Shown here: positions 3,104 to 31,229 of the stretch, piece after piece
Numbering within the stretch: position 1 is the stretch's first letter
How the letters are laid out: every line of letters starts with the position of its first letter
Origin: an uncultured Clostridia bacterium
Lineage (GTDB): Bacteria > Bacillota > Clostridia > TANB77 > CAG-508
Direction of reading: 5' to 3'
NCBI GenBank assembly: GCA_948485625.1
Contig: CAOMRW010000001.1
Span: 70,449-134,448 of the forward strand
DNA: 64,000 bases
The notes under the pieces: generated by a model
Seen by the model: the letters and a program-made list of their open reading frames with translations, nothing else
What the model was told of the DNA's origin: nothing
Databases searched by the model: none
Translations under genes and position numbers: made by a program

Positions 3104-4545
3104 TTAATTCTTGAAAAAATCATTTATTGTTTGTTCTTCTGTAATTTCATTGTCTGTTAAGAATATTTCGTTAATTATTGTTCTAACTCCGTTATAATGT
3201 GCTCCTCCTCTATACATTTCAATAAATTTTGTTTCCTCATCTATTCGAATGCTTTTAATCTGATTTATGTTATTATTATCTTCATATTCTATAGCTTTTA
3301 TAAGTTGTTTATTTTGATTATAAAACTTTATTGCTGGAAATCCTACATATACATTTATAAATTTTCCTATACAATCCTCCTCAATCTCTATAAGTCCACC
3401 ACTTGTTCCATTTATGTATTTTCCTGTAATAGTATTTGCTCCAAAACCTGCTTGACTTTCAATATCACCATCAAATGCATTATATAAAACATCATAATAG
3501 TCTGCCCAGCTATATTCTCTTAAAGTAGTATATGGTATTGTTTTATCTAATACTCTTCCTATAATCTCGTTTGTTTTAGGGTCTTTTTTGTATGCATTAA
3601 CAAATCCTGATGTTGTTAATACTATTTTTTCTAAAGACTCTGTTGTATTTGTTGTTGTAAATTCTTTTGTATCAGATTTTATTATCTCACTATTATAATT
3701 TAGTGTTACATATACACTATATTTAGTTTCTTTATTTAAGTCATTTATAGTTATACTTGTTTCTGTTGTATTACTAATTTTCGCAGTCTCATCTAAATAA
3801 TAAGTATATATGCCATCTTCTATGCCATTTATAATATTTATTTTGCATTTTGTATCGTCTATTTCTGTTATTTCTATTTCTGGTTTTTCTATTATATTAG
3901 TAACATTTACTGTTTTTCTAGCTTTTCTTCCACTGTCTCCTATTGCAATAAAAGTATATTTTCCATTTTTAGATACTGTAAAAATTTTATGTGTGTCACT
4001 TACTTGTGTTTTTAATGTTATATTTTCTGGTTCTTGTAATATTACTGTTCCTTCTGTAATACTAGCAATTACTTCTATATCTACATTTTCTGATGTAAGT
4101 TCTTTTGTTAGTGCTTCAGCTTCAATATCTGGTTTTATTCCATTTATTTTTTCTTCAACATGTACTTGATAATTATCATCTATATAAAATGAGTATCCTT
4201 TATATTCTCCCTCTGGATAGTCTGGTGCTTGTGTTATATCCCAGTCATAATCATCTTTTCCCTCTTCATCTAAATATTCTGGTAGTTTTTTATTATGTTT
4301 TCCATATTAAACTCTTCATTTTTGATGATTGAATCTGTTTTCATAGTTGCTATTACTAAATTTAGTTCTTCCTCATATTGTGCTTGTTTAGATTTTTCAC
4401 TTGCTTCTTTTGCTCTTTCAAATAATCCACTTCCTGTTAAACTTGATATTGATATTCCTGCTAATATTAGTAGAATTATTATTGTTATTACTAATGCTAT
4501 TAATGTTATTCCTTTGTTTCCTTTTATTTTTAAGTATCTTTTCAT
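3104..4545 (-). pseudogene. large surface protein with pilin-like N-terminus, paralogue a; frame broken in an A6 run (T6 at 4286-4291)
   Basis: ORF 4270-4545 encodes MKRYLKIKGNKGITLIALVITIIILLILAGI... I checked codon by codon that the -1 frame is open from 4306 down to the stop at 3104-3106 (LPEYLDEEGKDDYDW...GDSGRKARKTVNV...). That part has no start codon, so it is missing from the ORF track. Confidence 0.8.
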
Positions 4546-4579
4546 TTGTTTCTCTCCTTTTTTAGATTTATGTTTATAC

Positions 4580-4770
4580 CATTTGTATAAGATATCTGTA
4601 ACTCGCTTTGCTCGAACAGCTTTATTTCTATATGTTTACAAATTCACTGTCGTTCATTTGTATAAGATATCTGTAACTTGCTTTGCTCGAACAGCTTTAT
4701 TTCTATATGTTTACAAATTCACTGTCGTTCATTTGTATAAGATATCTGTAACTCGCTTTGCTCGAACAGC
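4580..4770 (-). repeat. 75-bp tandem repeat, two full units (4580-4654, 4655-4729) plus 41 bp, inside the 5' leader of paralogue a
   Basis: I read this directly from the sequence. The unit is catttgtataagatatctgtaactcgctttgctcgaacagctttatttctatatgtttacaaattcactgtcgtt, with one mismatch between the units. Confidence 0.9.
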
Positions 4771-4777
4771 TATCTTA

Positions 4778-4806
4778 ATTATATATTTTGTTATTTTTAA
4801 GCACAA
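4778..4806 (-). promoter_or_regulatory. sigmaA-type promoter of paralogue a
   Basis: On the minus strand the sequence reads TTGTGC, a 17-nt spacer, then TATAAT, immediately upstream of the conserved leader. Confidence 0.5.
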
Positions 4807-4873
4807 GAAAAGTGACTACTTTTAGTAATCACTTTTTAACATAATATCTTATTGTCTAATAATTTTATTAGTA

Positions 4874-6157
4874 CTAATTTGGTAAATTTTCATTTGAATA
4901 TTCATTTCCAGATAAATCACTTTCACTGCACCATACTTCGTAAACATATAGTCCATCATTTGACACTGCTCCACTTATTCCTCCCCAATATGTTCCATCT
5001 GGAATAAGTACACTTCTTGCATGTAATAATCTTGTGTCAACTTCACCAGGTAGGCTATTTAAATAAATAGTATATTTATCAGAGAAATTTTCTTTACTAG
5101 ATCCAAAACATAACCATCCAGCCTCTCCATAAACATTATTGCAATATATAGTAATATATTTTCCCCAGCAGTCAGAATCTATTTTAAAAAGTGCTCCATA
5201 TAGTGCATATCCACTTTGAGTATCAAATTTTTTATCATAGCAATTCTGGTCAAGAGGTACCCCTTCAGTAGCATTAATAACGCTAGCTTCTTTACTTACA
5301 ATTTCTGTTTCTATATTACTTTCTTCTATCACACTTTTTGCCATTATTTTAGTAGCATTTGTTCTGATTGTTCCTGAATATATTTGCCATGTTGCTCCAT
5401 CATCTTCACTATAATAATTCTTTATAAATTCACTATCATCAAATTGAATATCTACAATAATTTTGCCTCCTTTAAATCCTTCTAATGTTAATGTAGGGAA
5501 TCTTTCTTCTTCATTGATAGTTATTATTGGTGTACTTGGTTTTATATTTTGTATATCTATAGTATTTTTTCCTTTTCTTCCTGTTGATGATATTGCTTTG
5601 AATATATAACTTCCACTTTTATTTACTGTGAATGTTGTTTCTGCTCCACTTACTTCTGTTCCATCTGGTTTTATTATTTTGGTTATTGTCCCATCTGATA
5701 CTGTTGCAGTTGCTGTTATTATTACCTCACTCGCTCCAATGTCTGTTGTATTTACTGAAAATGTTATTGTTGGTTTTGCTCCATTCATTGGTCCATTCAT
5801 TTCTACTTTTAGGTCTTTATCTATTGTATATGCGTAATCTTTATATTCTCCTTCTATTTCTTCACCATCTAATTGTGCTTCTATATCTTTTAATTTATTG
5901 GGTAATTCTTTCTCTAATAATTCTAATGTTACATTATTTCCTTTTGATATTTCTTCTATTTGTATATTCATTATTGTTGTTTCAATTTCTTCTTTTATTT
6001 GAGCCTCTAAAGATTTTTCCTTTGATTCTTTTGCTCTTCCAAATAATCCACTTCCTGTTAAACTTGCTATTGATATTCCTGCTAAGATTAATAGAATTAT
6101 TATTGTTATTACTAATGCTATTAATGTTATACCTTTATTATTTAAAAGTTTTTTCAT
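4874..6157 (-). CDS. large surface protein with pilin-like N-terminus, paralogue b
   Basis: A 427 aa ORF. Its N-terminus MKKLLNNKGITLIALVITIIILLILAGISI resembles a prepilin leader and helix but has Ala instead of Glu at +5. This is followed by a charged helix, Ig-like segments and a unique Cys/Trp-rich C-terminus. Confidence 0.8.
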   Translation of the reverse strand: MKKLLNNKGITLIALVITIIILLILAGISIASLTGSGLFGRAKESKEKSLEAQIKEEIETTIMNIQIEEISKGNNVTLELLEKELPNKLKDIEAQLDGEEIEGEYKDYAYTIDKDLKVEMNGPMNGAKPTITFSVNTTDIGASEVIITATATVSDGTITKIIKPDGTEVSGAETTFTVNKSGSYIFKAISSTGRKGKNTIDIQNIKPSTPIITINEEERFPTLTLEGFKGGKIIVDIQFDDSEFIKNYYSEDDGATWQIYSGTIRTNATKIMAKSVIEESNIETEIVSKEASVINATEGVPLDQNCYDKKFDTQSGYALYGALFKIDSDCWGKYITIYCNNVYGEAGWLCFGSSKENFSDKYTIYLNSLPGEVDTRLLHARSVLIPDGTYWGGISGAVSNDGLYVYEVWCSESDLSGNEYSNENLPN

Positions 6158-6213
6158 TTGTTTCCTCCTTAATTTAATATATGATTCTATATATTATTAT
6201 CTTTTATGAAAAA

Positions 6214-6242
6214 ATTATAGCATTGCAGGTGGTATATTGCAA
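6214..6242 (-). promoter_or_regulatory. candidate sigmaA promoter of paralogue b
   Basis: The minus strand reads TTGCAA, a 17-nt spacer, then TATAAT, about 55 nt upstream of the start codon. Confidence 0.45.
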
Positions 6243-6302
6243 CATTAAAAAAAAAATTTATTGTTATTATATAAGGCATTAATAAAATAAATGGAGTGAA
6301 AA

Positions 6303-6542
6303 ATGAATAAAGATATATATTATTTAGTAGGTCAGAATATAAAAAAACAAAGGAAATTAAAAGGATTAACACAATTAGAATTGGCTAATAAAACATTTTA
6401 TAGTTATGAATTTATTAGAAAAGTCGAATCTAAGAGTGCTTGTAGAAATACTTTTTCTTTAGATACTGTTAGCAAAATTGCTTTAGCTTTAAATATAGAC
6501 ATTAGGCTTTTGTTTGAACCTCTTGATGATGAAATTGCTTAA
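6303..6542 (+). CDS. XRE-family helix-turn-helix regulator
   Basis: A 79 aa ORF with the LKGLTQLELANK HTH signature, divergent from paralogue b. Confidence 0.8.
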   Translation: MNKDIYYLVGQNIKKQRKLKGLTQLELANKTFYSYEFIRKVESKSACRNTFSLDTVSKIALALNIDIRLLFEPLDDEIA

Positions 6543-6619
6543 TTAATATTTTTTATAACAAATAAAAAACTTAAGTTATAATTATTACTAATTTAATAAC
6601 TTAAGTTTTATTTTATGTT

Positions 6620-7498
6620 TTATTTTAATTGATTCATAACTTCTTCAGCAAAGTTTTCTTCTTTCTTCTCGATTCCTTCACCTTTTTCAAATCTAGCAAA
6701 TGCAACTACTTCACTATCTGTTTCAGCTAATAATTGTGATACTTTTTTACTTGGGTCTTTTACAAATGCTTGGTCTATTAAACATATTTCTTCATAGAAT
6801 TTTCCAATTCTACCTTGAACTATTTTTTCAGCTATTGCTTCTGGTTTTCCTTCATTCATTGTTTGAACTTTTAAGATTTCCATTTCTTTTTCTACTCTTT
6901 CAGCAGATACTTCTTCTTTTCTTACAAATTCTGGTCTTGCTGCTGCTATTTGCATACATATGTCTTTTGCAACTTCTTCTGTTCCTTTAGCCATATCTAC
7001 TAAAACAGCGATTTTTCCATCACCATGGATATATTTTGCAACTATTCCATTAGATTCAAATCTTACAAATCTTCTTATTGATAAGTTTTCTCCTATTGTT
7101 GCTATTTTTCCTACTAATGCTTCTTGTACTGTTTTTCCTTCTTCAAATTCTGCTGGTGATGCTAATAATGTTTCTACATCTGCTGGATTTGTATTAACTA
7201 TTTGTTTTGCTACATTCATAACAAATGTTTTGAATTCTTCATTTTTTGCAACGAAGTCTGTTTCTGAGTTTACTTCTACTACTGCTCCAACTTTTCTATC
7301 TTCTGATACATATGCTTCTACTAATCCTTCTGCTGCTATTCTTCCTGATTTTTTAGCTGCTTTTGCAATTCCTCTTTCTCTTAATAAGTCCATTGCTTTT
7401 TCCATGTCTCCATCTGTCTCTGTTAAAACTTTTTTGCAGTCCATCATTCCTGCTCCTGTTTTTTCTCTTAATTCTTTTACTAAACTTGCTGTAACCAT
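6620..7498 (-). CDS. tsf: elongation factor Ts
   Basis: A 292 aa ORF starting VKELREKTGAGMMDCKKVL, downstream of rpsB. Confidence 0.95.
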   Translation of the reverse strand: MVTASLVKELREKTGAGMMDCKKVLTETDGDMEKAMDLLRERGIAKAAKKSGRIAAEGLVEAYVSEDRKVGAVVEVNSETDFVAKNEEFKTFVMNVAKQIVNTNPADVETLLASPAEFEEGKTVQEALVGKIATIGENLSIRRFVRFESNGIVAKYIHGDGKIAVLVDMAKGTEEVAKDICMQIAAARPEFVRKEEVSAERVEKEMEILKVQTMNEGKPEAIAEKIVQGRIGKFYEEICLIDQAFVKDPSKKVSQLLAETDSEVVAFARFEKGEGIEKKEENFAEEVMNQLK

Positions 7499-7661
7499 TT
7501 TTTATTTCCTCCTTTTTAAGTTAGCTGTTTAGGCTATGCTGATTATATATAAGTTATTATTATAATCACTTGCTCTTAAGCTACTATATTATTTCAAAAA
7601 GAGCATAACATCTGTCCCGTCCGAATATTTTCGAACGAGCGTTGCTCGCTCTTTTCATTTA

Positions 7662-8432
7662 TTATTCTTCTTCGCTATTTGCTACTACTTCTTCCATTGA
7701 AGCTGGTTCTTCTGTTACTTCTTCCATAACAGCTTCTGTTTCAAAGCTTTCACCTTGTTTTCCTTCAATGATTGCATTTGCCATAACATCTGTTATTAAT
7801 TTTACAGCTCTTATAGCATCATCATTTCCAGGTATAGCATAATCAACTTCTTCTGGATTGCAGTTTGTATCAACTAATCCTATTAATGGTATTCCCAATT
7901 TTTTAGCTTCTAATACTGCTATATGTTCTTTTTTAGGATCTACTAAGAATATAACTCCTGGAATTTCTTCCATATCTTTAATTCCACCTAAGTTTCTTTC
8001 TAGTTTTTCCATTTCTTTCTTTAATAAGATAACTTCTTTTTTTGGTAATACATCAAATGTACCATCTTCTTGCATTGTTTCAAGATTTTTTAATCTTTGT
8101 ACTCTTGTTCTGATTGTTTCGAAGTTTGTTAACATTCCTCCTAACCATCTTTGATCAATATAGTACATTCCAGATTTTTCTGCTGCTTCTTTAACACATT
8201 CTTGTGCTTGTTTTTTTGTTCCTACAAATAGAACTGTTTTCCCTTCTTCTACTTGTTCTTTTAAGAATGCATAAGCTTCATCTAATTTTTTAGATGTTTT
8301 TTGTAAATCGATTATATGGATTCCATTTCTAGCTTGAAATATGTATTCAGCCATTTTAGGGTCCCATCTTCTTGTTTGATGTCCAAAGTGAACACCTGCT
8401 TCTAGTAATTGTTTCATTGCAACTACTGCCAT
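7662..8432 (-). CDS. rpsB: 30S ribosomal protein S2
   Basis: The ORF track gives 7662-8477. I place the start at the ATG at 8430-8432 ([23 protein letters not shown]), which is preceded by GGGAGGA. The protein has an acidic C-terminal tail. Confidence 0.93.
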
Positions 8433-8893
8433 TTTAAATTCCTCCCTTTTTGTTTTTACTTCCATAAAGTTCATCATTTAAACAGGACCAATTTCTTGGC
8501 ACTTCCCTTTAAACTTGCTTTATGTGTTTATTACGCATAATATTATAGCAACTTTTTTAACTAAATGCAAGCATTTTTCTAAAATTTGCTATTTTACTTA
8601 TAAAAAGTTTTACCCAAATAGCTTAGTTGCATACTTTTGTGCTATTGTTTTCTAGTAACCTAAAAATCATATTTTGGCAACTTGTTCTACATATTTTTCT
8701 TCTTTTGGCATTATTTTTTCAATTTCAACATCCATTTTCATTCTTATTATTTAGTTTTCATAAACTTTATCATTTTTTATTTAAATCAATTAAATTATGT
8801 AAATTTTTATATTTTTACTAAAATCTATTGATTTAATTTCTAATTTATTATAGTATATAAAAGAAATTAATGAGATTTACATAGGAGGAAAAA

Positions 8894-9760
8894 ATGCCAA
8901 GAAAAGCAAAAGAAAATGAAGAATTAAAAAGAGTAGTAAAAGATACTACTGAACTAAAAACTAAAAAAAGTAATACTAAAAAATCTACTAATAGAACTAC
9001 TAAAAATCAGGAGTTAGATGTTAAATTAGCTGATACAAAAACATCAAATTCAAGAAAAAAACCTGTTACTAAAAGTGTAACTGAAAAAAAATCTTCTACA
9101 TCAAGAAAAAATACAACAAAAAAAGATACTTCAAAAAAGTCTAAAAAGTCATCAACTGTAAAGAAACAGGTAAAACCTACGCTTGTTGAATATTATGATT
9201 TACCAGAAAGATATAATCAAACAGTAGTTAAGGTTTTAGCTCAAACTCCTAAAACTCTTTTTATTTATTGGGAAATTTCTGATTCTGATATAGAAAAATA
9301 TATAACTCAATATGGTGAAAATTTTTTTGAGACAACAAAACCAGTTTTAATTATTCATAATGATACTTTAAATTATAGTTTTGAAGTAGAAATAAATGAT
9401 TTTGCTAATAGTTGGTATTTACATATAAATGATACTAAATCAAATTATAGAATTGAGCTTGGTAGACGTCCTGTAAATAATAATGTGGATTTAAAGTCTG
9501 ATTATATTTATATAACATCGTCAAATAAAATTGAATCTCCAAATGATCATATTTTATTTAATAATTCTGAGAAAATGGTTTATTTTAGAAATGTTAAAAC
9601 TAATCATGAAATTCAAAAACCTTTATATACTCTTTCTTTCATGAAAAATATTGGAAAGATTTATGATATTTATGATTTATATTCTGAGTTATACAAGAAC
9701 GAAGATAGCCTTGAAAATTTATCAAATCCATCTTCAAATATGTCATCTCAATTTAAATAA
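8894..9760 (+). CDS. DUF4912-like protein with a Lys/Ser/Thr-rich N-terminus
   Basis: A 288 aa ORF. The segment YDLPERYNQTVVKVLAQTPKTLFIYWEIS resembles DUF4912, which commonly precedes GH57 genes. Confidence 0.65.
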   Translation: MPRKAKENEELKRVVKDTTELKTKKSNTKKSTNRTTKNQELDVKLADTKTSNSRKKPVTKSVTEKKSSTSRKNTTKKDTSKKSKKSSTVKKQVKPTLVEYYDLPERYNQTVVKVLAQTPKTLFIYWEISDSDIEKYITQYGENFFETTKPVLIIHNDTLNYSFEVEINDFANSWYLHINDTKSNYRIELGRRPVNNNVDLKSDYIYITSSNKIESPNDHILFNNSEKMVYFRNVKTNHEIQKPLYTLSFMKNIGKIYDIYDLYSELYKNEDSLENLSNPSSNMSSQFK

Positions 9761-9781
9761 TTTAAGAAGGAGAATTTTAAA

Positions 9782-11368: not shown

Positions 11369-11372
11369 AAAA

Positions 11373-13031: not shown

Positions 13032-13032
13032 G

Positions 13033-14129: not shown

Positions 14130-15725
14130 TTAATGATATATACAATCTAATCCCATGCAAATTCTCCGAGAATATACTCCATATTCATCATTTGAAACTC
14201 CTGGTTCAGTTATTCTAAAAGTAGTTTCGTCGACTTGTGGAGTAAAGTTAATATAATTTCCATCATTCCATTCTCCCTCTTCTCCCAATCCATAATAGCT
14301 TAAGCAACCATACGAAGCATGGCTAACACTAATTCCACTGAAAGAATGTCTCAAAAACGCTTGGCTGATACCAAGAATAGTACAATTTTTAAGTTCAACT
14401 GGGGTACCTGAATAATTACTACCCATGAAATAAGAAGCTCCACCACAATTTCCAGGTAAATCGAACAATACATTATTAAATCCTAAATATCCCCCTACAC
14501 TAGTATAGTTATAGAATGGTTGTAAATCTTTCCAAACTAATTTATTAAAAACGTGGTGACCATTTGCACTATCTATCCCATCCACATACAGATTAGTTCT
14601 CTCTATTACAGTACTCAACCCGCGACCATAAAATGAAACCTTACCTGGAGAAGTTAATAAACCTTGAACCATACTATATGTGCCTGATGATAAATAAATG
14701 TTATATTCGTAACCTGAAACAATGATACCATTACCAGTCATTTTAGTTAATGTTTTATAAGGATTGCTTTCTGTACCATCTCCAGTTTCATCATTTCCAT
14801 TGTTTGCATCTATATAAATCTCCTTAGGTCGAATTAAAGTTGTTTGTTTTACTTCTAATGATGTTTTATTATTTCCTGCTTTATCATATGCTATTACTTG
14901 TACTATATATTCTGTTCCTTCTTCTAGTTCTGTTACTGTATATGTTGGACTTGTTGTTTCATATGCTTCTTTTCCACTTATATTATATACATATTTTCCT
15001 ATTCCACTTTTTACACTACTTGTTGTTGCTTCTCCATCTTCTGCTTCTACTTTTATTGTAAATGTATCTGCTGTTACTTCTTCTATTGTTACTTCTGCTT
15101 TTGTTGGTGCTACTGTATCTATTTTTTGTACTTTTAATGGTTTTGTTTTTGTTTCTCCTGCACTGTCTGTTACTGCTACTTGATATTCCCCATTTTGTGT
15201 TATTGTAAATGTTCCATCTGCATTTCTTGTTAATCCATTTACTTCTATATTTGTTATATTTCCATTTGTCGATTTTGCATTTACTGTTAATGTTATATTT
15301 CCGTTTGTGTATCCTTTTGGTGTTAATGTACAGTAAAAGCTTATTCCTTTTATTGTGTCTCCTACTGTTACCTTTAAATTAGTGTCTATTGTATATTCAT
15401 ATCCTTTATATTCTCCATTTATTTAAGTATCATTTAATGTTGCTGTTATTCCTTCTAGCTTATTTGCTAATTGTCCATCTTCTCCTGCTAAGCTTTCTAA
15501 TGTTACATTATTTCCTTTTGATATTTCTTCTATTTGTATGTCCATTATTGCCATTTCTATTTCTTCTTTTATTTGGGCTTGTTCTGATTTTTCTTTTGAC
15601 TCTTTTGCTCTTTCAAATAATCCATTTCCTGTCAGACTTGCTATTGATATTCCTGCTAAGATTAGTAGGATTATTATTGTTATTATTAATGCAATTAATG
15701 TAATACCTTTACTTTGTTTTTTCAT
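14130..15725 (-). pseudogene. large surface protein with pilin-like N-terminus, paralogue c; a single in-frame TAA at 15423-15425
   Basis: ORFs 15423-15725 and 14130-14741 are in the same frame. I checked that every codon between 14742 and 15422 is open. The downstream part encodes Ig/Fn3-like segments and a beta-helix-like C-terminus (IYIDANNGNDETGDGTESNPYKTL). Confidence 0.8.
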
Positions 15726-16059: not shown

Positions 16060-17769
16060 TTATTCTGTTTTATATACTTCATAAACTATAGGTTCTGAAG
16101 TATATGTTGCTCTTATTCCTATATATTTAACATCTTCTGTTATTGTTATGGTATCAGTTACCCCTCCAACACCATCGACTATATAAGTACTATTATAAAT
16201 ATCTGCAAAAGGATATGAATGTCCATCACTTCTAAAATCTCTATATCCATACAACCATAGCTTTGTTCCTCCATTGCCTTCACCTTTAATTTTCCATGTT
16301 GTTCCTATAGCACTACTATCAACTTCAAATAGAAAACCTGAATAGTCTTTAGCTTGTACTCTTTCTTCTAAATTTCCATCAAATAAAGTTTTAGGAGCTG
16401 CTCCATTTCCATAACATTCTCCTGCACTTAAATCTAATGCATATGTTACTTTATTTCCTTCTACTTTTTTTACATTTTTTATTCCATCTGATGTAAGTAT
16501 TGGATATTCAAGTGCTCCATAAGCCTTTATAGATACCTCATAAATTTCTAGATATACATCTGAATATATTACTATAGATTTCGTATTTTCTGGTATTATT
16601 GCTGTTGTATCATTAATAATTCCTGTTCCTACACTTGAAGTTTTATATGTTTTTATTAAATTGTTGTTTGAGTCTAAATATGCTATATTTAATTGTCTTT
16701 CATAACCACTTGTTGTTCTAAATAATCTAAATTTAATACTCATATTTGTACTCCATGTTGTTTCATCCACTAAAAATTTAGCATTATAAGTTTCTCCAAT
16801 ACCTTGAATATTTGAATATGGATAATCAAATACTGTTTCATTATTACCATCATAACTTTCTGGTCTTAAATAATTCTGTGATATTGTTAATGTTTTTTCT
16901 GCTATTTCTGATTCTAATTTACTTTCACTTTCTATTACACTTTTTGCTTCTATTTTTGTACTACTTGTTGTTATTTTTCCTGTATATAATTTCCAATCTC
17001 CACCATCTTCTCTGTAATAGTTTTTAATAATATTGCTATCATCATATTTTACTTCTATTACATATTGACCTGCTTTAATTTCTGTTGATGTAAATAGAGG
17101 ATATCCGCCTTCTTGTACTATAGTAATTTCTGGTGTTGCAGGTTTAATATTTATAATATCTTTTGTATTTTTTCCTTTTCTTCCTGTCGATGATATTGCT
17201 TTAAATACATAGCTTCCGCTTTTATTTACTGTGAATGTTGTTTCTGCTCCACTTGTTTCTGTTCCATCTGGCTTTATTATCTTCTCTATTGTTCCATCTG
17301 ATACTGTTGCAGTTGCTGTTATTATTACTTCTGTTGCTCCAATGTCTGTTGTGTTTACTGAAAATGTTATTGTTGGTTTTTCTCCACTCATTGGTCCATT
17401 TATTTCTACATTTAAATCTTTGTCTATTGTATAGCCATAATCCTTATATTCTCCTTCTATTTCTTCTCCATTTAATTCGGCTTCTATATCTTTTAGTTTA
17501 TTAGGTAATTCTTTTTCTAGTAATTCTAATGTTACATTGTTTCCTTTTGATGTTTCTTCTATTTGTATGTCCATTATTGCCATTTCTATTTCTTCTTTTA
17601 TTTGAGCTTCTAAAGATTTCTCTTTTGATTCTTTTGCTCTTTCAAATAGTCCACTTCCTGTTAAAGAAGCTATTGATATTCCTGCTAAGATTAGTAAGAT
17701 TATTATTGTTATTACTAATGCAATTAATGTTATGGCTTTTTGATTTTTGATTTTTAATTTTTTATTCAT
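16060..17769 (-). CDS. large surface protein with pilin-like N-terminus, paralogue d
   Basis: The ORF track gives 16060-17823. The ATG at 17767-17769 (MNKKLKIKNQKAITLIALVITIIIL) follows GAGGAG. The first roughly 300 aa are close to paralogue b and the C-terminal half is unique. Confidence 0.8.
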   Translation of the reverse strand: MNKKLKIKNQKAITLIALVITIIILLILAGISIASLTGSGLFERAKESKEKSLEAQIKEEIEMAIMDIQIEETSKGNNVTLELLEKELPNKLKDIEAELNGEEIEGEYKDYGYTIDKDLNVEINGPMSGEKPTITFSVNTTDIGATEVIITATATVSDGTIEKIIKPDGTETSGAETTFTVNKSGSYVFKAISSTGRKGKNTKDIINIKPATPEITIVQEGGYPLFTSTEIKAGQYVIEVKYDDSNIIKNYYREDGGDWKLYTGKITTSSTKIEAKSVIESESKLESEIAEKTLTISQNYLRPESYDGNNETVFDYPYSNIQGIGETYNAKFLVDETTWSTNMSIKFRLFRTTSGYERQLNIAYLDSNNNLIKTYKTSSVGTGIINDTTAIIPENTKSIVIYSDVYLEIYEVSIKAYGALEYPILTSDGIKNVKKVEGNKVTYALDLSAGECYGNGAAPKTLFDGNLEERVQAKDYSGFLFEVDSSAIGTTWKIKGEGNGGTKLWLYGYRDFRSDGHSYPFADIYNSTYIVDGVGGVTDTITITEDVKYIGIRATYTSEPIVYEVYKTE

Positions 17770-18497: not shown

Positions 18498-19253
18498 TTA
18501 TTTATTTCCAACATTTTTTATTTGATCTATTATTTTATTTATTTCATCAAGTCTTTTTTCTTCCATTTTCTCTATTTGTATCTTAAACATTTCTAAGTCT
18601 CCAGTAGTAGCATATGTATCTAATGCATCATAATATTCTAGTCTATCTTCTACCCTTATACTAATTGGTAAAAATTCATCAGACATTAATTGGTAATTCA
18701 TTAGTAATCTTGATGTTCTTCCATTTCCGTCTGGGAATGGATGTATTTTTACAAATTCAGCATGTGTCCATGCGGCTAATTCTATTGTATCCATTTTTTC
18801 TCTGTTTATCTTTAAGTCCTCATAAAATAATTTCAATTGATTATACATATCATTTGGTGTTGGTGGCGTATGTTTTGCACCTGTTATTATAACATCTGTA
18901 CTACGATAAATTCCACCTTGCATTATGTTATCTGTTAATATTTCATGTATATCTTTTATTATATTTTCATTTAGTTCTTCTTTTTTTTCAATACATCTTT
19001 TTACATATTCAAATGCTTTATTATGATTTATAACTTCATATATTTCTCTTAATCTTTTTCCTCCTATTGATATATTATCTTCTAAGACTGTTTTTGTTTC
19101 AATAAGAGTTAATGTATTTCCTTCTATTGTTGTTGAATTATATGTAAAATCAATATCAAATGCTTTGTCAATTTTCTCTTTTAGTTCGTTTGTTATTATT
19201 TCTTTATTCTTATTATAGAAATCTTTCTTTTTTAATAAAGCTGAATTTATCAT
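18498..19253 (-). CDS. Fic family protein
   Basis: A 251 aa ORF with the Fic motif HPFPDGNGRTSR. Confidence 0.9.
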   Translation of the reverse strand: MINSALLKKKDFYNKNKEIITNELKEKIDKAFDIDFTYNSTTIEGNTLTLIETKTVLEDNISIGGKRLREIYEVINHNKAFEYVKRCIEKKEELNENIIKDIHEILTDNIMQGGIYRSTDVIITGAKHTPPTPNDMYNQLKLFYEDLKINREKMDTIELAAWTHAEFVKIHPFPDGNGRTSRLLMNYQLMSDEFLPISIRVEDRLEYYDALDTYATTGDLEMFKIQIEKMEEKRLDEINKIIDQIKNVGNK

Positions 19254-23516: not shown

Positions 23517-23519
23517 CTA

Positions 23520-23924
23520 CTACATATCCTTTACTATACTTGCTAATATTCCATTTACAAAGTTTTTAGATTTATCTTCACCATATTTTTTTGCAAGTTC
23601 TACTGCTTCATTTATTGCTACTTTATATGGTATATCATTATATTTTATTTCATATATTGCAAGCTTTAATATTGATAAATCCATTTTTGAAATTCTGTTT
23701 AATTTCCATTCTTCTTTTAAATTCTTCTCTATATCTTTTAATATTTGTTCTTCATTTTTGTTTATTCCCAAAATTACATCAGAGATATATTTTATTGTTT
23801 CTTCTTCTTTTATTTCATTACTTTCAAAAAATAAATCTATTTGTTCTTGAATTTTCTCAGGTTTTTGAATTTCTAAGCTATATATTAATTTGAAAGCATT
23901 TTCTCTCATTGCTGATCTATTCAT
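23520..23924 (-). CDS. nusB: transcription antitermination factor NusB
   Basis: A 134 aa ORF with an [12 protein letters not shown] start and [13 protein letters not shown]. Confidence 0.9.
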
Positions 23925-23947
23925 TTTTTCTTCCTTCCACTTAAATA

Positions 23948-24151
23948 TTACATTTTGTCTATAAATTTTTTCAATTTTGCTTTAACATCTTCTTTATTTT
24001 GTTGTACATAATTTCCTATAAAAGCTCCTGCTAGTATTAATAGAACTCCTACTATTAATGCATATAATCTTGTTGCTAATACTACTATTGCTATAATTAT
24101 TCCTATTATTGCTCCTCTATATTGACTTATAAATTTTTTAAATTCATCCAT
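23948..24151 (-). CDS. small integral membrane protein (DUF2273-like)
   Basis: A 67 aa ORF with two TM helices, in the usual position in an asp23 cluster. Confidence 0.6.
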
Positions 24152-24181
24152 ATTATTTGCTCCCTTCTTGATTTTATGTTT

Positions 24182-24742
24182 CTATTTTTCTATGTTAGTT
24201 TGTTTTTCTTGGATAGCTTTTTTTACAGTTATATTTACTTCTTTTACTTCTAAGTCTGTTGTTTCTTTTACTTTATTTTTTATTTTATTTTGTAGGTCTG
24301 CTGATAAATCTTTTATTATTGTATCTGCTCCTACTACTATATTTACAAAGATGTTGACATTATTTTCTTTGTCTAATTCAACTCTTGATGTAACTTCTTT
24401 TGCCATTTTATATTCTTTTGTAACAACTTCTACTAAGTTTTCAATTGTTTCTTTTGATATCATTAGTTTGCCATTATCATTTGCTAAAAGAACTCCTTGT
24501 TTTTCTTTTAATTCTTTTTTTGATGTTGGGTCAAAGAATATACATCTAATTGATAGTAATATGAATATTATACTTACTCCTAAAATTATTTTTGACGATG
24601 TTTCAGATATTATTAGTGTTTTTATTAGACTTTGTACTATATTTATGTCTAACCATCCAAATATTAATAAACATGCTATTACTGATAATATTAATATTAT
24701 ATTTGAATATAATATTAGTGCGATTTTTTCTATAATTTTCAT
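24182..24742 (-). CDS. amaP: alkaline shock response membrane anchor protein AmaP-like
   Basis: A 186 aa ORF with N-terminal TM helices, directly downstream of asp23. Confidence 0.6.
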   Translation of the reverse strand: MKIIEKIALILYSNIILILSVIACLLIFGWLDINIVQSLIKTLIISETSSKIILGVSIIFILLSIRCIFFDPTSKKELKEKQGVLLANDNGKLMISKETIENLVEVVTKEYKMAKEVTSRVELDKENNVNIFVNIVVGADTIIKDLSADLQNKIKNKVKETTDLEVKEVNITVKKAIQEKQTNIEK

Positions 24743-24768
24743 TTCTTTTACCTCTCTTTATTTAAATA

Positions 24769-25248
24769 TTATTCATTTGAGTCTTGTTGCTCTTCTGTTT
24801 TATTTTGATTTTCTTCAATTTCTTCATTTCTTATTATGTCTGTATTTACTCCTTGAACATGTACATTTACTTCTTCTACTTTAAATCCTGTCATTCCCTC
24901 TACTGCTTTTTTTACTCTATTTTGTATTTCAAATGCAACATCTGGTATTCTTGAACCATATTCTACTATAATATTTACATCTATTTTGGCAGTATTTTCT
25001 GCCTTTTCTACTTTTATTCCTTTTGCTAGATTTTTCTTTCCACTTAATACTTCTGTTATTCCTCCTGCAAATCCTCCTGACATTGATGCAACTCCTTGTA
25101 CTTCTGATACTGCTACTCCTGCTATTACTGCTATTACATCATTTGATATTTCTATCCCATTTTCTGTATTATCTGTATTTTCTACTTTTTGCTTGATTTC
25201 TTCCTCTTTTATTTCTTCATTTTCTGTTTTTATTTCTTTTTCATCCAT
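24769..25248 (-). CDS. Asp23/Gls24 family envelope stress protein
   Basis: A 159 aa ORF with ISNDVIAVIAGVAVSEVQGVASM. Confidence 0.85.
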   Translation of the reverse strand: MDEKEIKTENEEIKEEEIKQKVENTDNTENGIEISNDVIAVIAGVAVSEVQGVASMSGGFAGGITEVLSGKKNLAKGIKVEKAENTAKIDVNIIVEYGSRIPDVAFEIQNRVKKAVEGMTGFKVEEVNVHVQGVNTDIIRNEEIEENQNKTEEQQDSNE

Positions 25249-25345
25249 GAAAAAACCTCCTTTTCAATTTAAAAATTGATATACTTATAATATGGTATAA
25301 GTATATCAATCTTTAGGATTTTTTACAACCTTTTTGTATTATTTT

Positions 25346-26302
25346 TTATTCAAATACTTCAAATTCATCAATTGAATTTCCTCTTAAGAAATCGCATATA
25401 TTCATTCTCTTAGCATTTTCTCCTTGAATTTCTAAAACACTTAATATTCCTTTTTTAGTTTTTATAAATAATCCATCTCTTTGGTCTGATATTAAAACTG
25501 TTCCATTTCTGAAAATTTCAACATTTTCTTCATCATATTCTATATTTTCTGCAATATTTACTTTCCAGAATTTAATTTTTTTACCATTTAAAAAAGTATA
25601 AGCTCCCATAATTGGATTTAATCCTCTTACTAGATTTTTGATTTCTTGTGCTGTTTTATTTTCCCAATCAATTTTAGCTATTTCTTTATCTAGCATAGGT
25701 GCAACTGTAAAATCATCACCTTGTTTTTCTCTTGGAGCTGTTCCGTTTTCAATTTGTTTTAAAGTTTCTACTAATAAGTTTCCTCCTATTTTAGAAAGTC
25801 TTTCCCATAATTCACCTGTTGTTTCATTATCACCAATTTCTACTTCTTCTTTTAAAATCATATCTCCTGTATCCATTCCAACATCCATATACATTGTTGT
25901 TATACCTGTTTTTTTATCTCCATTTAAAACTGCCCATTGTATTGGTGCTGCTCCTCTATATTTAGGAAGTAATGACCCATGGACATTTATACATCCTAAT
26001 TTTGGTATATCTAGTATTTCTTTTGGTAGAATTTTTCCATATGCTACAACACATATAATATCTGGATTTAGTGATTTTATTTCATCTATAAATTCTTCAT
26101 TTTTTCTTACTTTTACTGGTTGATATATTGGTATATTTTTTTCTACTGCAAATTCTTTTACTGGTGATGCAACTAATTTCATTCCTCTTCCTTTTGGTTT
26201 GTCTGGATTTGTTACAACTCCTATTATTTTGTGTCCTGCATTATATACTGCTTCTAAACTTTCTTTTGCAAAATCTGGTGTTCCCATAAATAATATATTC
26301 AT
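25346..26302 (-). CDS. fmt: methionyl-tRNA formyltransferase
   Basis: A 318 aa ORF with MNILFMGTPDFA and INVHGSLLPKYRGAAPIQ. Confidence 0.95.
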   Translation of the reverse strand: MNILFMGTPDFAKESLEAVYNAGHKIIGVVTNPDKPKGRGMKLVASPVKEFAVEKNIPIYQPVKVRKNEEFIDEIKSLNPDIICVVAYGKILPKEILDIPKLGCINVHGSLLPKYRGAAPIQWAVLNGDKKTGITTMYMDVGMDTGDMILKEEVEIGDNETTGELWERLSKIGGNLLVETLKQIENGTAPREKQGDDFTVAPMLDKEIAKIDWENKTAQEIKNLVRGLNPIMGAYTFLNGKKIKFWKVNIAENIEYDEENVEIFRNGTVLISDQRDGLFIKTKKGILSVLEIQGENAKRMNICDFLRGNSIDEFEVFE

Positions 26303-26318
26303 ATTTATCTCGTCCTTT

Positions 26319-26795
26319 CTATTTTTCAGGTTCTACATACTCAAGAGTTCCTGGCAAAATCTTATCCATAAAAACTTCTCCATCTAAATGGTCACATTCA
26401 TGACAAATAGCCTGTGCTAATAAGTCTTTCGCTTTTACTTTAACTCTTTTTCCATTTCTATCAGTATATTCAGCAGTTACTTCTTCAGGTCTTTTCACCT
26501 TTGCAAATTTATTTGGAAAACTTAAGCATCCTTCATCAACTTCATGCTCTCCCTTAGTTTTCAAAATAATTGGATTAATTAGAACAATTGGGCCTTTATC
26601 ATCATATAAATCAATAACTACTACTCTTTTTAAAACACCAACTTGAACAGCAGCTAGTCCTACTCCATTATATTTATGCATTGTATCTATCATATCATCT
26701 ATTAAAACTTGTAGTTTATCATCTATTGTTTCAACTTCTCTAGATTTTTTACTTAATATTTCGTCTCCTTCTAATCTTAAATTTCTTATTGCCAT
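26319..26795 (-). CDS. def: peptide deformylase
   Basis: The ORF track gives 26319-26813. I place the start at the ATG at 26793-26795 (MAIRNLR). The EGCLSFP and HECDHL motifs are present. Confidence 0.93.
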   Translation of the reverse strand: MAIRNLRLEGDEILSKKSREVETIDDKLQVLIDDMIDTMHKYNGVGLAAVQVGVLKRVVVIDLYDDKGPIVLINPIILKTKGEHEVDEGCLSFPNKFAKVKRPEEVTAEYTDRNGKRVKVKAKDLLAQAICHECDHLDGEVFMDKILPGTLEYVEPEK

Positions 26796-26811
26796 TTTTA
26801 TTCCCCTTTCC

Positions 26812-26965
26812 ATGTCCCAAAGGGACGTTTCTTTTGGGACAAAAATGTCCCAAAATCCCCATTCTTGAAATATTCTTTAATTTCAAATTAATATTTTTAT
26901 TTAACAAATAACATGTGTCCCTAATGGGACAAAAATGTCCCAAAAGAAACGTCCCTTTGGGACAT
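26812..26965. repeat. 154-bp MITE-like structured element made of five GTCCC/GGGAC hairpins with roughly 45-bp inverted ends
   Basis: The hairpins are at 26814-26826, 26835-26852, 26917-26930, 26925-26942 and 26951-26963. The outer 29 nt of the two ends are exact reverse complements. The element fills the priA-def spacer. Confidence 0.8.
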
Positions 26966-29199
26966 CACGCCATATTATTTGGATTCACATCTATTGTAAT
27001 TTTAGTATTTTTTAAATCTTTGTTGTATATTTCTTTTAATAAATTATTCAAAACTTCATTTGCTCTTTCGTTCATATTGCCTTTTATAATAATTCTCCAT
27101 CTATATTTATTTTGTATTTTGTCAATTGGAGATGGCATTGGTTTGAATATTTTAAATTCTTCATTATTTAAATTGTTTTTTGCATATTCATAAGCTATTT
27201 CTGAAACTTTTTTTATTTCTGTTTCATCTGTACTATTAAATCCAATTATTATTATATCGCAAAATGGTGGATATTTCAACTGTTTTCTTAATATGATTTC
27301 TTTGTCATAGAATTTTTCATAATTTTGTTTTTTGGCATCTTGTATGCTGAAATTTTCTGGATTGTAGCTTTGTATTATTACTTTTCCTGGTAAATTCTCT
27401 CTTCCTGCTCTTCCTGCTACTTGTGTTAGTATCTGGAATGTTCTTTCTGTTGCTCTATAGTCGTCTATATTTAGTGAGCTATCTGCTGCTATAACTCCTA
27501 CTAGTGTTACTTTTGGAAAGTGATGTCCTTTTACTACCATTTGTGTTCCTATTAGTATATCTATATCTTCATTTTTAAATTTGTTTAATATTTCTTCATG
27601 TGAATTTTTTTTAGTTACTGTGTCTACATCCATTCTGATTGTTTTAGCTTGTGGAAATTGTTTATGGATTTCTTGTTCTAGTTTTTGTGTTCCTGTTCCA
27701 AAATATCTTATTTTATCGCTTTTACATTCTGGGCATTCTTTTACTAATTTTTCTTCATATCCACAGTAATGGCATTTTAATTTATTTTCATAACTGTGAT
27801 ATGTCATACTAATATTACAGTTTTTACATTTAACAGTATATCCACAATTTCTACACATTATAAATGTTGAATATCCTCTTCTGTTTAAAAATAGTATTGT
27901 TTGTAATTTATTTTTTAAATTCTTTTCTATTTCTTGATATAAATCAAAGCTTAACATTGACCTGTTTCCATTTGCAAGTTCTTGTTTTAAGTCTATTACT
28001 TCTACTTTTGGTAGATTTGATTGATTTGCTCTTTTTGTTAGTTTTAATAATTTAATTTTTCTATTATCTGAATTATAAAAAGTTGTTATATCTGGTGTTG
28101 CGCTTCCTAATAATAATGGTATTTTTTCTTCTTGTGCAATTTTTTTTGCAATTTCTTTTGCATTATATTTAGGAGTTGCTTCAGATTTATATGAACTATC
28201 ATGTTCTTCATCTATTATTATAATTCCTAAATTTTTAACAGGTGCAAATATTGCTGACCTTGCTCCTATTACAATTTTTGCTTTTTCTTCTTTTATTCGC
28301 TCCCATTCATCATGTCTTTCCCCAATTGATAATTTACTGTGCAAAACTGCTATTTGTTCTTTTCCAAATCTTGATATAAATCTATCTAGCATTTGGGGTG
28401 TTAATGAAATTTCTGGAACTAATATAATAGCAGATTTATTACTTTTTATAACTTTATCTATTAATTGAAGATAGACTTCTGTCTTTCCAGAACCTGTAAC
28501 ACCATATAATAAAAATTGCTTATATTCATTTTGATCTATTATTTTAGCGACTTCATTAAAAGCATTTTCTTGTTCTTCTGTTAATTTTAAATTTTGTGTA
28601 TTTTCTATTTCTTTATTGTTTAATGGATTTCTTTCAATTTTCTTTTCTACTAATTCTAAATATTTATTTTTTATAAGTGTATTTATTATTGCTCTTGAAC
28701 AGTCTGTGAATGTTTCAACTTCTGGTATAGTGCATCCTTGATTATCTTTTATAAAATTTAGTATTTTTATTTGTTTATCTGATTTTATTTTTTTATTTTC
28801 TATATCAAAATTTATTTCATTAAATTCTTTTTTTAAGTATATTACATTTATTTTTTTGTCTTGTATTCTTTTATTTACATTCTTAGTTCTTGTTCCTGGA
28901 GTTTGCATTAGTTTTATACATTCTGAAATATTGCAAAAGTATCTCTTTGCCATCCAATTTGCTAATTCTATTTGTTTATCTGTTAAACCTGTTTCAACTT
29001 TTGCTATATCTTTAATTTTAAATTCTGAACTATCTTTTATTTTTACAACATGTGCCTCTTCTAGACTTTTAAATGAACCAAATGGTACTAAAACTTTGCT
29101 TCCTATAGCAATTAGTGCTTCTAATTCTTTTGGTATGTTATAGTCAAATGTTCTATTTAATTTTTTTGCTGTAGAATTTATTATTACTTCTGCTACCAT
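26965..29199 (-). CDS. priA: primosomal protein N' (replication restart helicase)
   Basis: A 744 aa ORF with GVTGSGKTEVY, DEEHD and a Cys4 cluster (CRNCGY...CKNC...CHYCGY...CPEC). Confidence 0.95.
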   Translation of the reverse strand: MVAEVIINSTAKKLNRTFDYNIPKELEALIAIGSKVLVPFGSFKSLEEAHVVKIKDSSEFKIKDIAKVETGLTDKQIELANWMAKRYFCNISECIKLMQTPGTRTKNVNKRIQDKKINVIYLKKEFNEINFDIENKKIKSDKQIKILNFIKDNQGCTIPEVETFTDCSRAIINTLIKNKYLELVEKKIERNPLNNKEIENTQNLKLTEEQENAFNEVAKIIDQNEYKQFLLYGVTGSGKTEVYLQLIDKVIKSNKSAIILVPEISLTPQMLDRFISRFGKEQIAVLHSKLSIGERHDEWERIKEEKAKIVIGARSAIFAPVKNLGIIIIDEEHDSSYKSEATPKYNAKEIAKKIAQEEKIPLLLGSATPDITTFYNSDNRKIKLLKLTKRANQSNLPKVEVIDLKQELANGNRSMLSFDLYQEIEKNLKNKLQTILFLNRRGYSTFIMCRNCGYTVKCKNCNISMTYHSYENKLKCHYCGYEEKLVKECPECKSDKIRYFGTGTQKLEQEIHKQFPQAKTIRMDVDTVTKKNSHEEILNKFKNEDIDILIGTQMVVKGHHFPKVTLVGVIAADSSLNIDDYRATERTFQILTQVAGRAGRENLPGKVIIQSYNPENFSIQDAKKQNYEKFYDKEIILRKQLKYPPFCDIIIIGFNSTDETEIKKVSEIAYEYAKNNLNNEEFKIFKPMPSPIDKIQNKYRWRIIIKGNMNERANEVLNNLLKEIYNKDLKNTKITIDVNPNNMA

Positions 29200-29280
29200 T
29201 TTTCACTCCTTTCACTACGCTTCGCTCTGTTCATCTTCATCCAAATCTAATGTTTAAAGAATTTATTTCATAAATTCTGC

Positions 29281-29323
29281 ATAAGCTATCTGTAACTCAC
29301 TTTGTTCGAACGGCTATCTTAAT
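29281..29323 (-). promoter_or_regulatory. copy of the pilin-leader core box in the priA 5' region
   Basis: ataagctatctgtaactcactttgttcgaacggctatcttaat aligns with 4736-4778 (tataagatatctgtaactcgctttgctcgaacagctatcttaat). Confidence 0.5.
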
Positions 29324-29524
29324 TTCGTCTGCCAAATGTCTCCTTGGAGATATTTATTTTCCTCCATTTCGTACCACAGGTTGTTTAATATTTTCTTGTA
29401 TAAGATATATCATATTTATTATACTAAATCAAGAAAAAATTTTTTCAAAATTATTAACATTTATTCTCTTTTGTGTTATACTATTTTTCAAAATTTAAAA
29501 TATAAATGAAATAGGTGTAAAATT

Positions 29525-30388
29525 ATGGATAATGAAAGATTTAATTTGACTAAAAAAGCTGGTATATATGGTATTGTTGGAAATATATTTTTATTAATTA
29601 TAAAGGCTATTGCTGGTTTTGTTTTTAAAAGTCAATCTATGATTGCTGATAGCTTTAATAGCGCTGGTGATATTTTTGCTTCTTTAATGACTTTTATAGG
29701 TAATAAAATATCAAGTGCTCCTAATGATGATGATCATAACTTTGGTCATGGAAAAGCTGAATATATTTTTTCTATGTTTATAGGAATTTCTATGGTTTTT
29801 GTGGCTAGTAAATTATTTTATGATTCTATTTCTACTTTAATTTTAGGTAGTAAATTAGAGTTTTCTTGGATTTTAATTGTTGTTTGTATTATAACGATTT
29901 TTATAAAGCTTTTTCTATTTTTATATACTAGAAAAGCTTCTAAAAAATGTAATAATATTTTGTTAGATTCAAATATGAAAGACCATAAAAATGATTGTAT
30001 TGTCACTTCTTTTACATTAATTTCAATAATTCTTTCTTTGTTTGGAATTTATTGGTTTGATAGTGTTGTTGGTATTGGTATTTCTATTTGGATTGGTTAT
30101 ACTGGTATTTCTATATTTATTGAAAGTTACAATGTTTTAATGGATATCTCTATTGATGATAAAACTAAAGATTTAATTTTGGATATTATTCATACTTATA
30201 AAGAAGTTAAAAATGTAGAAGCTATTTCTTCTTCACCAGTTGGTGCTCAACATATAATTTTTATAACTATTTGTTTAGATGGTAATATGTCTACTTTTGA
30301 AAGTCATTCTTTGGCAAATAGTATTGAGGAAACTATTAGTAATTTGGATAATGTATATAAGACTATTGTTCATGTTGAACCTGTTTAA
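29525..30388 (+). CDS. cation diffusion facilitator family transporter
   Basis: A 287 aa ORF with six TM helices, SMIADSFNSAGD and HNFGHGKAE. Confidence 0.85.
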   Translation: MDNERFNLTKKAGIYGIVGNIFLLIIKAIAGFVFKSQSMIADSFNSAGDIFASLMTFIGNKISSAPNDDDHNFGHGKAEYIFSMFIGISMVFVASKLFYDSISTLILGSKLEFSWILIVVCIITIFIKLFLFLYTRKASKKCNNILLDSNMKDHKNDCIVTSFTLISIILSLFGIYWFDSVVGIGISIWIGYTGISIFIESYNVLMDISIDDKTKDLILDIIHTYKEVKNVEAISSSPVGAQHIIFITICLDGNMSTFESHSLANSIEETISNLDNVYKTIVHVEPV

Positions 30389-30485
30389 AATGTTAATGGG
30401 ATTGAGTCTTCTGTTCTCTAATCCCTCTTTTTATATTATTAAAGCAAAGGAGAGATTAAGAAAACTTATCCTCCTAACCTCTCTT

Positions 30486-31229
30486 TTATTCTGTTATACT
30501 TACTAATTTTGAACCTAAATTTATGTCATCACCATGTGATACTTGAACATAATAGTTTCCTATTCTAGGAACATAAAAACTTAATCCATTCGCTGTGCTC
30601 CAATATGCATCTCCATCTGCTTTATATTTAACATTCCAATTGCTTATATATCCTGAATACTGAATATTTGTTATTTCTACTTTCCATTTATTATTTTCTT
30701 TTGAAAATGTTACTTCAAAACTTCCTTCTTTAGGATTTTTGTCTTTATATCTTACATTATATATTTCATCATCTATTTGGTCTATCATGTAATAAATATT
30801 ATCTTCATATTCATATCCTACACTATGAATAACATATCCATATTCAATATTGATTATATATTCTTCTAATATACCATCAAATCCTAATTCATTTTTTATA
30901 TGTTCACTATTAAAATATCTAAAACCATTTTTTATATTTATTTTTTCTTCTTGTGTTTTATTTTTAAAAATGATGTCTGAAATAGCTGTTATATTAAAAA
31001 TGCTTTTTTGTTCTTCTGTTAATTCTTGTCCCATTTCTATATCATTATTTTGGCTTAATTCATTTACTTTAGTTTGTAATATTACAAGTTCATCTTTAAA
31101 TTCAGTAAATGCTGCATATTCCATTGTCGATTTACCTACATTTGTTCCTACTGAAACTAGTATAAGTAATACTATAATTGTTATAACTAATGTTATTAAT
31201 GTTACACCATTTTCTTTTGTTTTTTTCAT
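30486..31229 (-). CDS. smaller protein with pilin-like N-terminus, paralogue e
   Basis: The ORF track gives 30486-31247. The ATG at 31227-31229 (MKKTKENGVTLITLVITIIVLLIL) follows AGGAGG. Thr replaces Glu at +5. Confidence 0.7.
   Translation of the reverse strand: MKKTKENGVTLITLVITIIVLLILVSVGTNVGKSTMEYAAFTEFKDELVILQTKVNELSQNNDIEMGQELTEEQKSIFNITAISDIIFKNKTQEEKINIKNGFRYFNSEHIKNELGFDGILEEYIINIEYGYVIHSVGYEYEDNIYYMIDQIDDEIYNVRYKDKNPKEGSFEVTFSKENNKWKVEITNIQYSGYISNWNVKYKADGDAYWSTANGLSFYVPRIGNYYVQVSHGDDINLGSKLVSITE

Follow-up and report, generated by a model that had tools for sequence, protein, structure and literature searches.

Glutamate at position +5 of the mature protein (Glu5) is regarded as a hallmark of bacterial type IV pilins, and the canonical pilins of clostridia start G|FTLIE, the bar marking the cleavage site. 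The type IV pilus (T4P) clusters of Clostridium perfringens and Clostridium difficile comprise pilA, pilB, pilC, pilD, pilM, pilN, pilO and pilT. The present analysis concerns five genes, named a to e, encoding proteins with a prepilin-like N-terminus that lacks Glu5, in a 64 kb stretch of DNA from an uncultured Clostridia bacterium (assembly GCA_948485625.1, contig CAOMRW010000001.1, positions 70,449 to 134,448; hereafter the window). The window belongs to the chromosome of a spore-forming, 26% GC, uncultured gut Clostridia metagenome-assembled genome (MAG). The five proteins are read here, with a probability of about 0.7, as modular type IV pilins.

In model systems, homopolymers do not assemble without Glu5 (PMC4471445, PMC10191384). 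The residue is dispensable for processing by the prepilin peptidase PilD, and mutants without it, which fail to homopolymerise, can still enter filaments together with wild-type subunits (PMC4471445). The filament tip is normally capped by subunits lacking Glu5 (PMC10191384, PMC9934059), and archaeal type IV pilins often lack it (PMC4471445). Modular pilins, in which a pilin carrier bears grafted modules, are an established concept (Raynaud et al. 2021; PMC8179133). Streptococcus sanguinis PilB (vWA) and PilC (lectin), CofB of enterotoxigenic Escherichia coli (ETEC) and Thermus ComZ combine, as do the products of genes a-d, a class III signal, a small pilin module and bulky C-terminal modules (PMC8179133, PMC9934059), and in these described cases the pilus presents the modules for adhesion. 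Unlike them, a-e possessed Ala or Thr instead of Glu at position 5, fell below the IPR012902/PF07963 threshold by which modular pilins have been catalogued, were multi-copy genes dispersed outside the pilus operon, and had near-orphan C-terminal modules exchanged between paralogues. The present analysis attaches such a family to a defined T4P system.

The translations and a DNA motif both bore out the claim, made earlier by a sequence-only reading of this DNA, of five minus-strand genes with a prepilin-like N-terminus. Gene b (4874..6157) was intact and encoded a 427-aa candidate modular pilin with five Cys and four Trp in its C-terminal ~140 aa, and gene d (16060..17769), also intact, encoded one of 569 aa, with Ala at -1 and a near-orphan, predicted all-beta C-terminus of 275 aa. 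Gene a (3104..4545) was frameshifted; its three-frame translation gave a reconstructed protein of 480 aa with a pilin module, a stalk and an all-new C-terminal module. Gene c (14130..15725) had 531 codons interrupted by one in-frame TAA, with an fn3-like middle and a C-terminus containing NPYKT. Gene e (30486..31229) was a divergent short member of 247 aa, starting G|VTLITL with Thr5; it had only the N-terminus in common with a-d, and this N-terminus resembled the operon-encoded G|VTLIS pilin-like protein of relatives (tblastn E 4.7e-4). The degenerate 30-nt pattern ACATTAATWRCATTARTWATAACAATWATA, encoding T-L-I-[AT]-L-[VI]-I-T-I-I, had exactly five matches in the window, those in a-e, with none expected from 100 shuffles.

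The class III-like signal and the hydrophobic alpha1N segment of b (6065..6136, minus strand) read K-G|ITLIALVITIIILLILAGISIA, and the translations placed the equivalent starts at about 4515 (a), 15710 (c), 17739 (d) and 31211 (e). The K-G-[IV]-T-L-I-[AT] start proposed previously was found in a, b, c and e, where Gly follows a short hydrophilic leader at -1, but not in d, which begins KAITLIAL with Ala (GCC) at -1. The corrected start is therefore a short Lys-rich leader followed by [GA]-[IV]-T-L-I-[AT]-L-[VI]-I-T-I-I. The predicted cleavage site was followed by about 21 hydrophobic residues, ITLIALVITIIILLILAGISIA in b, in a register matching the alpha1N of solved pilins. Glu, expected at +5 of a type IV pilin, was absent as had been reported: a-d had Ala there and e had Thr. 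The N-terminal codons of a-d differed at about eleven synonymous and three replacement sites; the predominance of synonymous differences points to selection on the peptide and not only to recent duplication, and fits purifying selection.

The region common to a-d comprised an N-terminal module of ~130 aa, whereas the Ig-like modules described after it were detected only below threshold in Pfam (fn3, which scored 23.8 bits where 25 is the cut-off; also Big_13 and Y_Y_Y). In d, the module covers residues 1-130 (17380..17769, minus strand) and contains the leader, the hydrophobic alpha1N, a TGSG break, a charged alpha1C, a short helix and four strands. The N-terminal module was also searched as a profile hidden Markov model (HMM) against PDB sequences. 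Its five best matches were all type IV pilins, headed by a geopilin (4.4e-4) and S. sanguinis PilE1 (3e-3) and followed by MshA, another geopilin entry and PilA; the alignments ran in register from the basic leader to the end of alpha1N. An AlphaFold2 model of the d module (mean predicted local distance difference test, pLDDT, 79) showed helices at 3-36, 41-74 and 81-91, the TGSG break and four strands, an order of elements that appears pilin-like. NCBIfam gave only weak GspG or PpdD matches.

The sequence-only reading could not place the family in any described system. Relatives were encoded on at least 433 stretches in GTDB species genomes, from which 80 loci were retrieved and examined. In eight related MAG species (L010; L036, Clostridium sp. 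CAG:440; L042; L046; L049; L053; L064; L081), all of 26-29% GC, the same N-terminus occurred on short pilins of 132-169 aa, whose genes, either single or in tandem pairs, lie between pilO and pilD. These short members started K-G|ITLIALVITIIVLLILAG, with the N-terminus G|ITLIALVITII.LLILAG and hence Ala5. In order, the operon comprised pilM/N (~540 aa), genes resembling pilN and then pilO, and the short pilin gene, which was single or duplicated. Next came pilD (~270 aa) and two pilin-like genes, the first of 140 aa and acidic at +5, the second of 150 aa and starting G|[VI]TLIS, and after them pilB (~545 aa), pilT (~365 aa) and pilC (~448 aa). In L046, Pfam recognised PilN (5.5e-5), A24_N_bact (2e-29), T2SSE with MshEN (4e-104), a second T2SSE (3e-44) and T2SSF (8e-29). 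The pilC open reading frame (ORF) of L036 (15103-16463) encoded 302 aa, compared with about 448 aa elsewhere, and may be truncated or frameshifted. The PilB sequence of Clostridium sp. CAG:440 was found on at least 1000 contigs.

The alpha1N of a-e was nearly identical to that of the short operon-encoded pilins of the clade. With an HMM built from the N-terminal modules of the long proteins, the pilins of the operons scored 83-93 bits (E 1e-25 to 1e-28), and gene d matched the L046 pilin by BLASTP at E 1e-16. Five MAGs possessed dispersed long members in addition to the operon. In these, the long proteins nearly matched the short pilin of their own MAG over the first ~32 mature residues (31/32 in CAUWGA01, for example), and this stretch is the part that forms the filament core. 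The window rpsB was 84-87% identical to those of L010, L036 and L064, the three of the eight loci containing rpsB, and in all three the operon adjoined it; together with the matching GC content, this identity places the window and these loci in the same family-level lineage. As the same N-terminus occurs in complete T4P operons, a-e are best placed as modular type IV pilins of that system and not as an unplaced class.

Compared with the clostridial T4P, the related loci possessed the same gene set, including the retraction ATPase PilT, and differed in a putative major pilin starting G|ITLIA, in a divergent PilD membrane domain, and in having a single operon pilin-like protein with Asp5 or Glu5. 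The latter was the 140-aa gene after pilD (L046:11733-12155), with Glu in L046 and Asp in the seven others; an acidic +5 residue there, beside a putative major pilin with Ala5, reverses the usual pattern. The Ala5 short pilins are probably the major subunit, because they are duplicated, their alpha1N is far more conserved across species than that of the Asp5/Glu5 gene product, and their C-termini, which are Ser- and Thr-rich, are variable. Promoter and terminator scans of two operons, bearing on which pilin is major, gave results at chance level. Alternatively, the acidic-5 protein would be the major pilin, with which the whole Ala5 family would co-assemble; a-e are built for the same filament under either assignment. 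The PilD homologue (L046:10908-11720, L036:10496-11311 and the other six loci) had a strong A24_N_bact match with four conserved Cys. It also possessed two invariant Asp residues, in AG[IV]D.E..KI and in L..D[TV]I[TS]LK, the second of which is not GxGDxKL.

A tip-pilin family had also been proposed. The lack of Glu5 does not mark tip pilins here, because the short pilins of the operon, probably the major subunit, themselves have Ala5. The tip minor pilins GspK, PilX and PilK, and S. sanguinis PilA, likewise have no acidic +5 residue and could cap the filament (PMC10191384, PMC9934059). In contrast to the GspK type, a-e were not in a minor-pilin operon, the model of their N-terminal module contained no GspK-type alpha-domain, and the short duplicated operon pilins of the clade are also without Glu5. 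The missing Glu5 was the only feature that a-e had in common with the GspK/PilX type, and a location at the tip is possible. Archaeal pilins and archaeal substrate-binding proteins with class III signals similarly carry these signals on large, non-filament-like proteins, whereas the family described here occurs in a bacterial lineage with machinery of bacterial type (A24_N_bact, PilT, PilMNO).

At the DNA level, b and d were 86-93% identical over ~800 nt from the start codon and only ~40% identical thereafter, and their upstream regions were not conserved. The swappable C-termini are therefore real, and the pattern is the mosaic expected for exchange of C-terminal cassettes on a conserved 5' module. 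Sequence comparison likewise confirmed that the C-termini of a-d are unrelated to each other. Genes a-d thus combine a pilin module with extra modules that are not specific to T4P, as modular pilins do, and the core of the earlier proposal, a cassette-style adhesin family with a pilin-type N-terminus devoid of Glu5, holds.

The C-terminus of c, with its NPYKT motif, was related to homologues with the beta-helix cap motif DUF1565 (blast E to family members 1e-4 to 5e-22; Pfam on P0009). No Pfam or PDB sequence match was obtained for the C-termini of b and d, and PDB sequence searches with those of b, c and d gave no meaningful match. The C-terminus of d recovered only a fragment of itself from a set of 5.8 billion proteins and is essentially an orphan. 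Among homologues, the C-terminal domains were DUF6273, DUF1565 or sub-threshold fn3; DUF6273 is a C-type-lectin-like binding fold and a target of diversity-generating retroelements (PMC10743442). Based on this architecture, the C-terminal modules probably bind ligands. The sites of family genes varied among close relatives: a member followed dnaJ in L061 (9941-11860), while in the window members lay between tsf and pyrH (3104-6157). These differing housekeeping sites indicate frequent gain, loss or relocation of family genes.

Genes a and c, previously taken as whole genes, were both disrupted. Gene a left its frame after codon ~86 through a -1 frameshift at an A6 tract (4286..4291, minus strand), identified from the DNA and the three-frame translation; a tract of A7 would restore ...NIIKKLPEYLDEEG..., as in the homologue P0001. 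The Logan assembly of SRR10593864 contained the same A6, although it may have been built from the same reads. In c, an in-frame TAA (15423..15425, minus strand) occupied the position of a Glu codon in the close homologue P0099 (GAA to TAA). As the frames remained open for ~390-430 further codons beyond the lesions (~430 in c) at 26% GC, the lesions must be very recent or reversible; they may reflect either decay or phase variation, in a by slipped-strand switching at the A6 tract. An explanation of the broken ORFs by genetic code 4 or 25 was rejected, as they are due to a single TAA and a single frameshift and the other genes read normally in table 11.

The family extended well beyond the window. 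More than 1000 relatives of gene d were present in the 5.8-billion-protein set, nearly all unnamed or annotated as 'hypothetical' and originating from uncultured gut Clostridia, with similarity confined to the N-terminal 35-70% of the protein. Many ended in DUF6273 or in a domain recorded as PF22842, although one member recorded as PF22842 matched DUF1565 on rescanning. Of 1.84 billion cluster representatives, a profile of the 138-aa N-terminal module matched 31,608 at E<=1e-3, and 20,389 remained at E<=1e-10. All 80 examined loci came from gut MAGs assigned to Clostridia, Clostridium sp. (including CAG:440 and CAG:389), Clostridiales, Clostridiaceae or Bacillota; the isolate names of many pointed to human (e.g. 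Hadza), rabbit, chicken, sheep or mouse samples. A single MAG often contributed several loci, and the family members within them ranged from about 130 to 1184 aa. Of the 111 motif copies in the fetched loci, 108 had Gly at -1 and 106 had Ala at +5. Among 135 diverse representatives, the -1 residue was Gly in 111 and Ala in 21, and the +5 residue was Ala in 119, Ser in 8 and Val in 6. Glu occurred at +5 in neither set (0/246 copies). A phage origin was also considered and rejected, since only five relatives were found in 2.9 million viral contigs, each at a contig end; the family is thus not phage-borne. A literature search with the N-terminal peptide motif found no paper.

For the modular pilins proposed here, the architecture would consist of a short basic leader, Gly or Ala at -1, a hydrophobic alpha1N of ~22 residues and a small pilin module of about 125 aa, followed in a-d by weakly Ig/fn3-like spacer domains and then by the variable C-terminal module. 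PilD would cut after the -1 residue on the cytoplasmic face, and alpha1N would keep the mature protein anchored in the membrane until PilB, PilC and PilMNO, which this genome would also have to encode, insert it into the pilus through the alpha1N core contacts used by the short pilin. Carried outwards by the pilus, either at its tip or thinly spread on its shaft, the C-terminal module would probably bind ligands of host, dietary or microbial origin. C-terminal cassettes would be swapped through recombination at the conserved 5' module, and disruptions such as those in a and c could switch individual variants off. In short, a T4P machinery probably displays a-e.

Several results weigh against this reading. 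PF07963 (N_methyl) scored a-d at 15.5-18.1 bits, under its cut-off of 21.2, and did not match e; TIGR02532 had no match at E<=0.1 in NCBIfam; and a Foldseek search of the module model against the PDB gave no significant hit (best E 0.19). No T4P assembly gene was detected in the window, in agreement with the sequence-only reading, either by Pfam across 60 ORFs or by tblastn with PilM/N/O/D/B/T/C as queries (best E 0.5). No operon lay beside rpsB in the window or in its closest relative with data, L061 (rpsB 91% identical); the operon may have moved or been lost. The clade PilD gave no Peptidase_A24 (PF01478) match even at E<=5 and possessed no GxGD motif. Furthermore, the AlphaFold2 model of the d C-terminus, built from a three-sequence alignment, reached a pLDDT of only 52 and was all-beta at low confidence, and two of the five genes were disrupted.

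The a-e proteins could instead be surface adhesins that use a pilin-type N-terminus as a mere membrane anchor, cut by PilD or not and never polymerised, analogous to the archaeal sugar-binding proteins with class III signals (the 'bindosome'). This would agree with the dispersal of the genes among housekeeping genes outside pilus operons, with the presence of T4P genes at only 8 of the 80 family loci (1.08 Mb of flanking DNA), with the bulk of the C-terminal modules, and with the missing Glu5, which is unfavourable for assembly in model systems (PMC4471445). However, bulky modules do not keep bacterial modular pilins from assembling (PMC8179133, PMC9934059), and a simple anchor leaves unexplained why alpha1N is nearly identical to that of the operon pilin in the same MAG, why the small residue at -1 is almost invariant and why a globular module with a pilin-like predicted structure is conserved. 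We therefore regard it as unlikely. A cleavage of the ordinary Sec-dependent type is much harder to reconcile with the data: a-e would be secreted or wall proteins from which signal peptidase I (SPase I) removes a long signal peptide of Gram-positive type, for instance at AGISIA|SL, after SIA. A possible S-I-A|S site does follow the hydrophobic stretch in a-d, but it is not conserved in the family (VSLNLIAG, ITIINLAE, VTINVLIG, ISIQAITN), and the region after LILAG varies among homologues without the conserved small-x-small pattern of an AXA-type SPase I site. What is conserved is the [GA]-ITL motif ahead of the hydrophobic stretch; the same motif is found in pilus operons, and the best PDB matches are pilins aligned in register, making this explanation highly improbable.

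The genes might also be decaying relics in a genome that has lost its T4P machinery and in which they drift into pseudogenes, as could be supposed from the frameshift in a, the nonsense codon in c, the absence of the operon from the rpsB-adjacent position held in three relatives, and the machinery genes missing from the window. Yet b, d and e are intact, the long open frames past both lesions speak for very recent or reversible damage, and the N-terminal codon differences are mostly synonymous, so that decay appears improbable.

The window had a GC content of 25-29%, with the majority of genes on the minus strand. Based on Pfam scans of its 60 ORFs, it contained the ordinary chromosomal genes of a spore-forming Firmicute, including frr, pyrH, tsf, rpsB, fhs, xseA, nusB, fmt, def, priA, mutS2, gpr (germination protease), ytxC, splB, thyA, folA and ftsZ. 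An exact copy of the gene d protein was encoded on contig CATNBH010000002.1 of MAG GCA_950096955.1, and gene d was also present on a second NCBI contig, of 150,003 bp. A Fic/DOC family gene (18498-19253, minus strand) lay directly downstream of gene d. Upstream of e, five minus-strand genes (31555-36225) each encoded an N-terminal transmembrane or signal segment and had no Pfam match; two of them formed a paralogue pair (32917-33549 and 34178-34771; 35% identity, E 1e-23). Between e and this secreted-protein cluster, the lone plus-strand gene was a tRNA-Gln(CTG) (31449-31523).

Two further regions of the window were distinctive. A run of nucleotide-metabolism genes (41279-53388; dCMP deaminase, DHFR, ThyA, RibD_C and HD proteins), interspersed with two Bro-N proteins, a radical SAM protein, a methyltransferase and a short FtsZ-family protein (322 aa), may be derived from a prophage or another element. 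In addition, a MobA/VirD2 relaxase, a TnpV and a serine recombinase (54866-58504, minus strand), with an adjoining tRNA-Tyr (59725-59810), looked like a small integrative mobilisable element.

The unusual features of this system are Ala5 on the probable major pilin as well, a divergent PilD and a family size beyond the reach of standard pilin models, PF07963 scoring all family members examined here below its cut-off. Taken as a whole, they suggest a T4P with an Ala5 major pilin and a GxGD-less PilD in a widespread gut Clostridia clade, together with ~20,000 clusters (50% identity) of modular adhesin pilins missed by PF07963, TIGR02532 and, presumably, motif predictors requiring Glu5; this broader picture is tentative, with the odds slightly against it. 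If it is true, Glu5 would not be required for homopolymerisation of bacterial T4P, and the pilin diversity of the gut microbiome would be substantially under-counted. An abundant gut lineage, including Clostridium sp. CAG:440, pairs a complete T4P operon with Ala5 pilins and reuses the same N-terminus on many dispersed proteins with swappable, putative binding modules, which offers a natural test case for the real role of Glu5. It also brings to light many unannotated candidate adhesins of relevance to gut colonisation, and suggests that small-genome anaerobes could vary their surface specificity through cassette exchange on a pilin carrier combined with on/off lesions.

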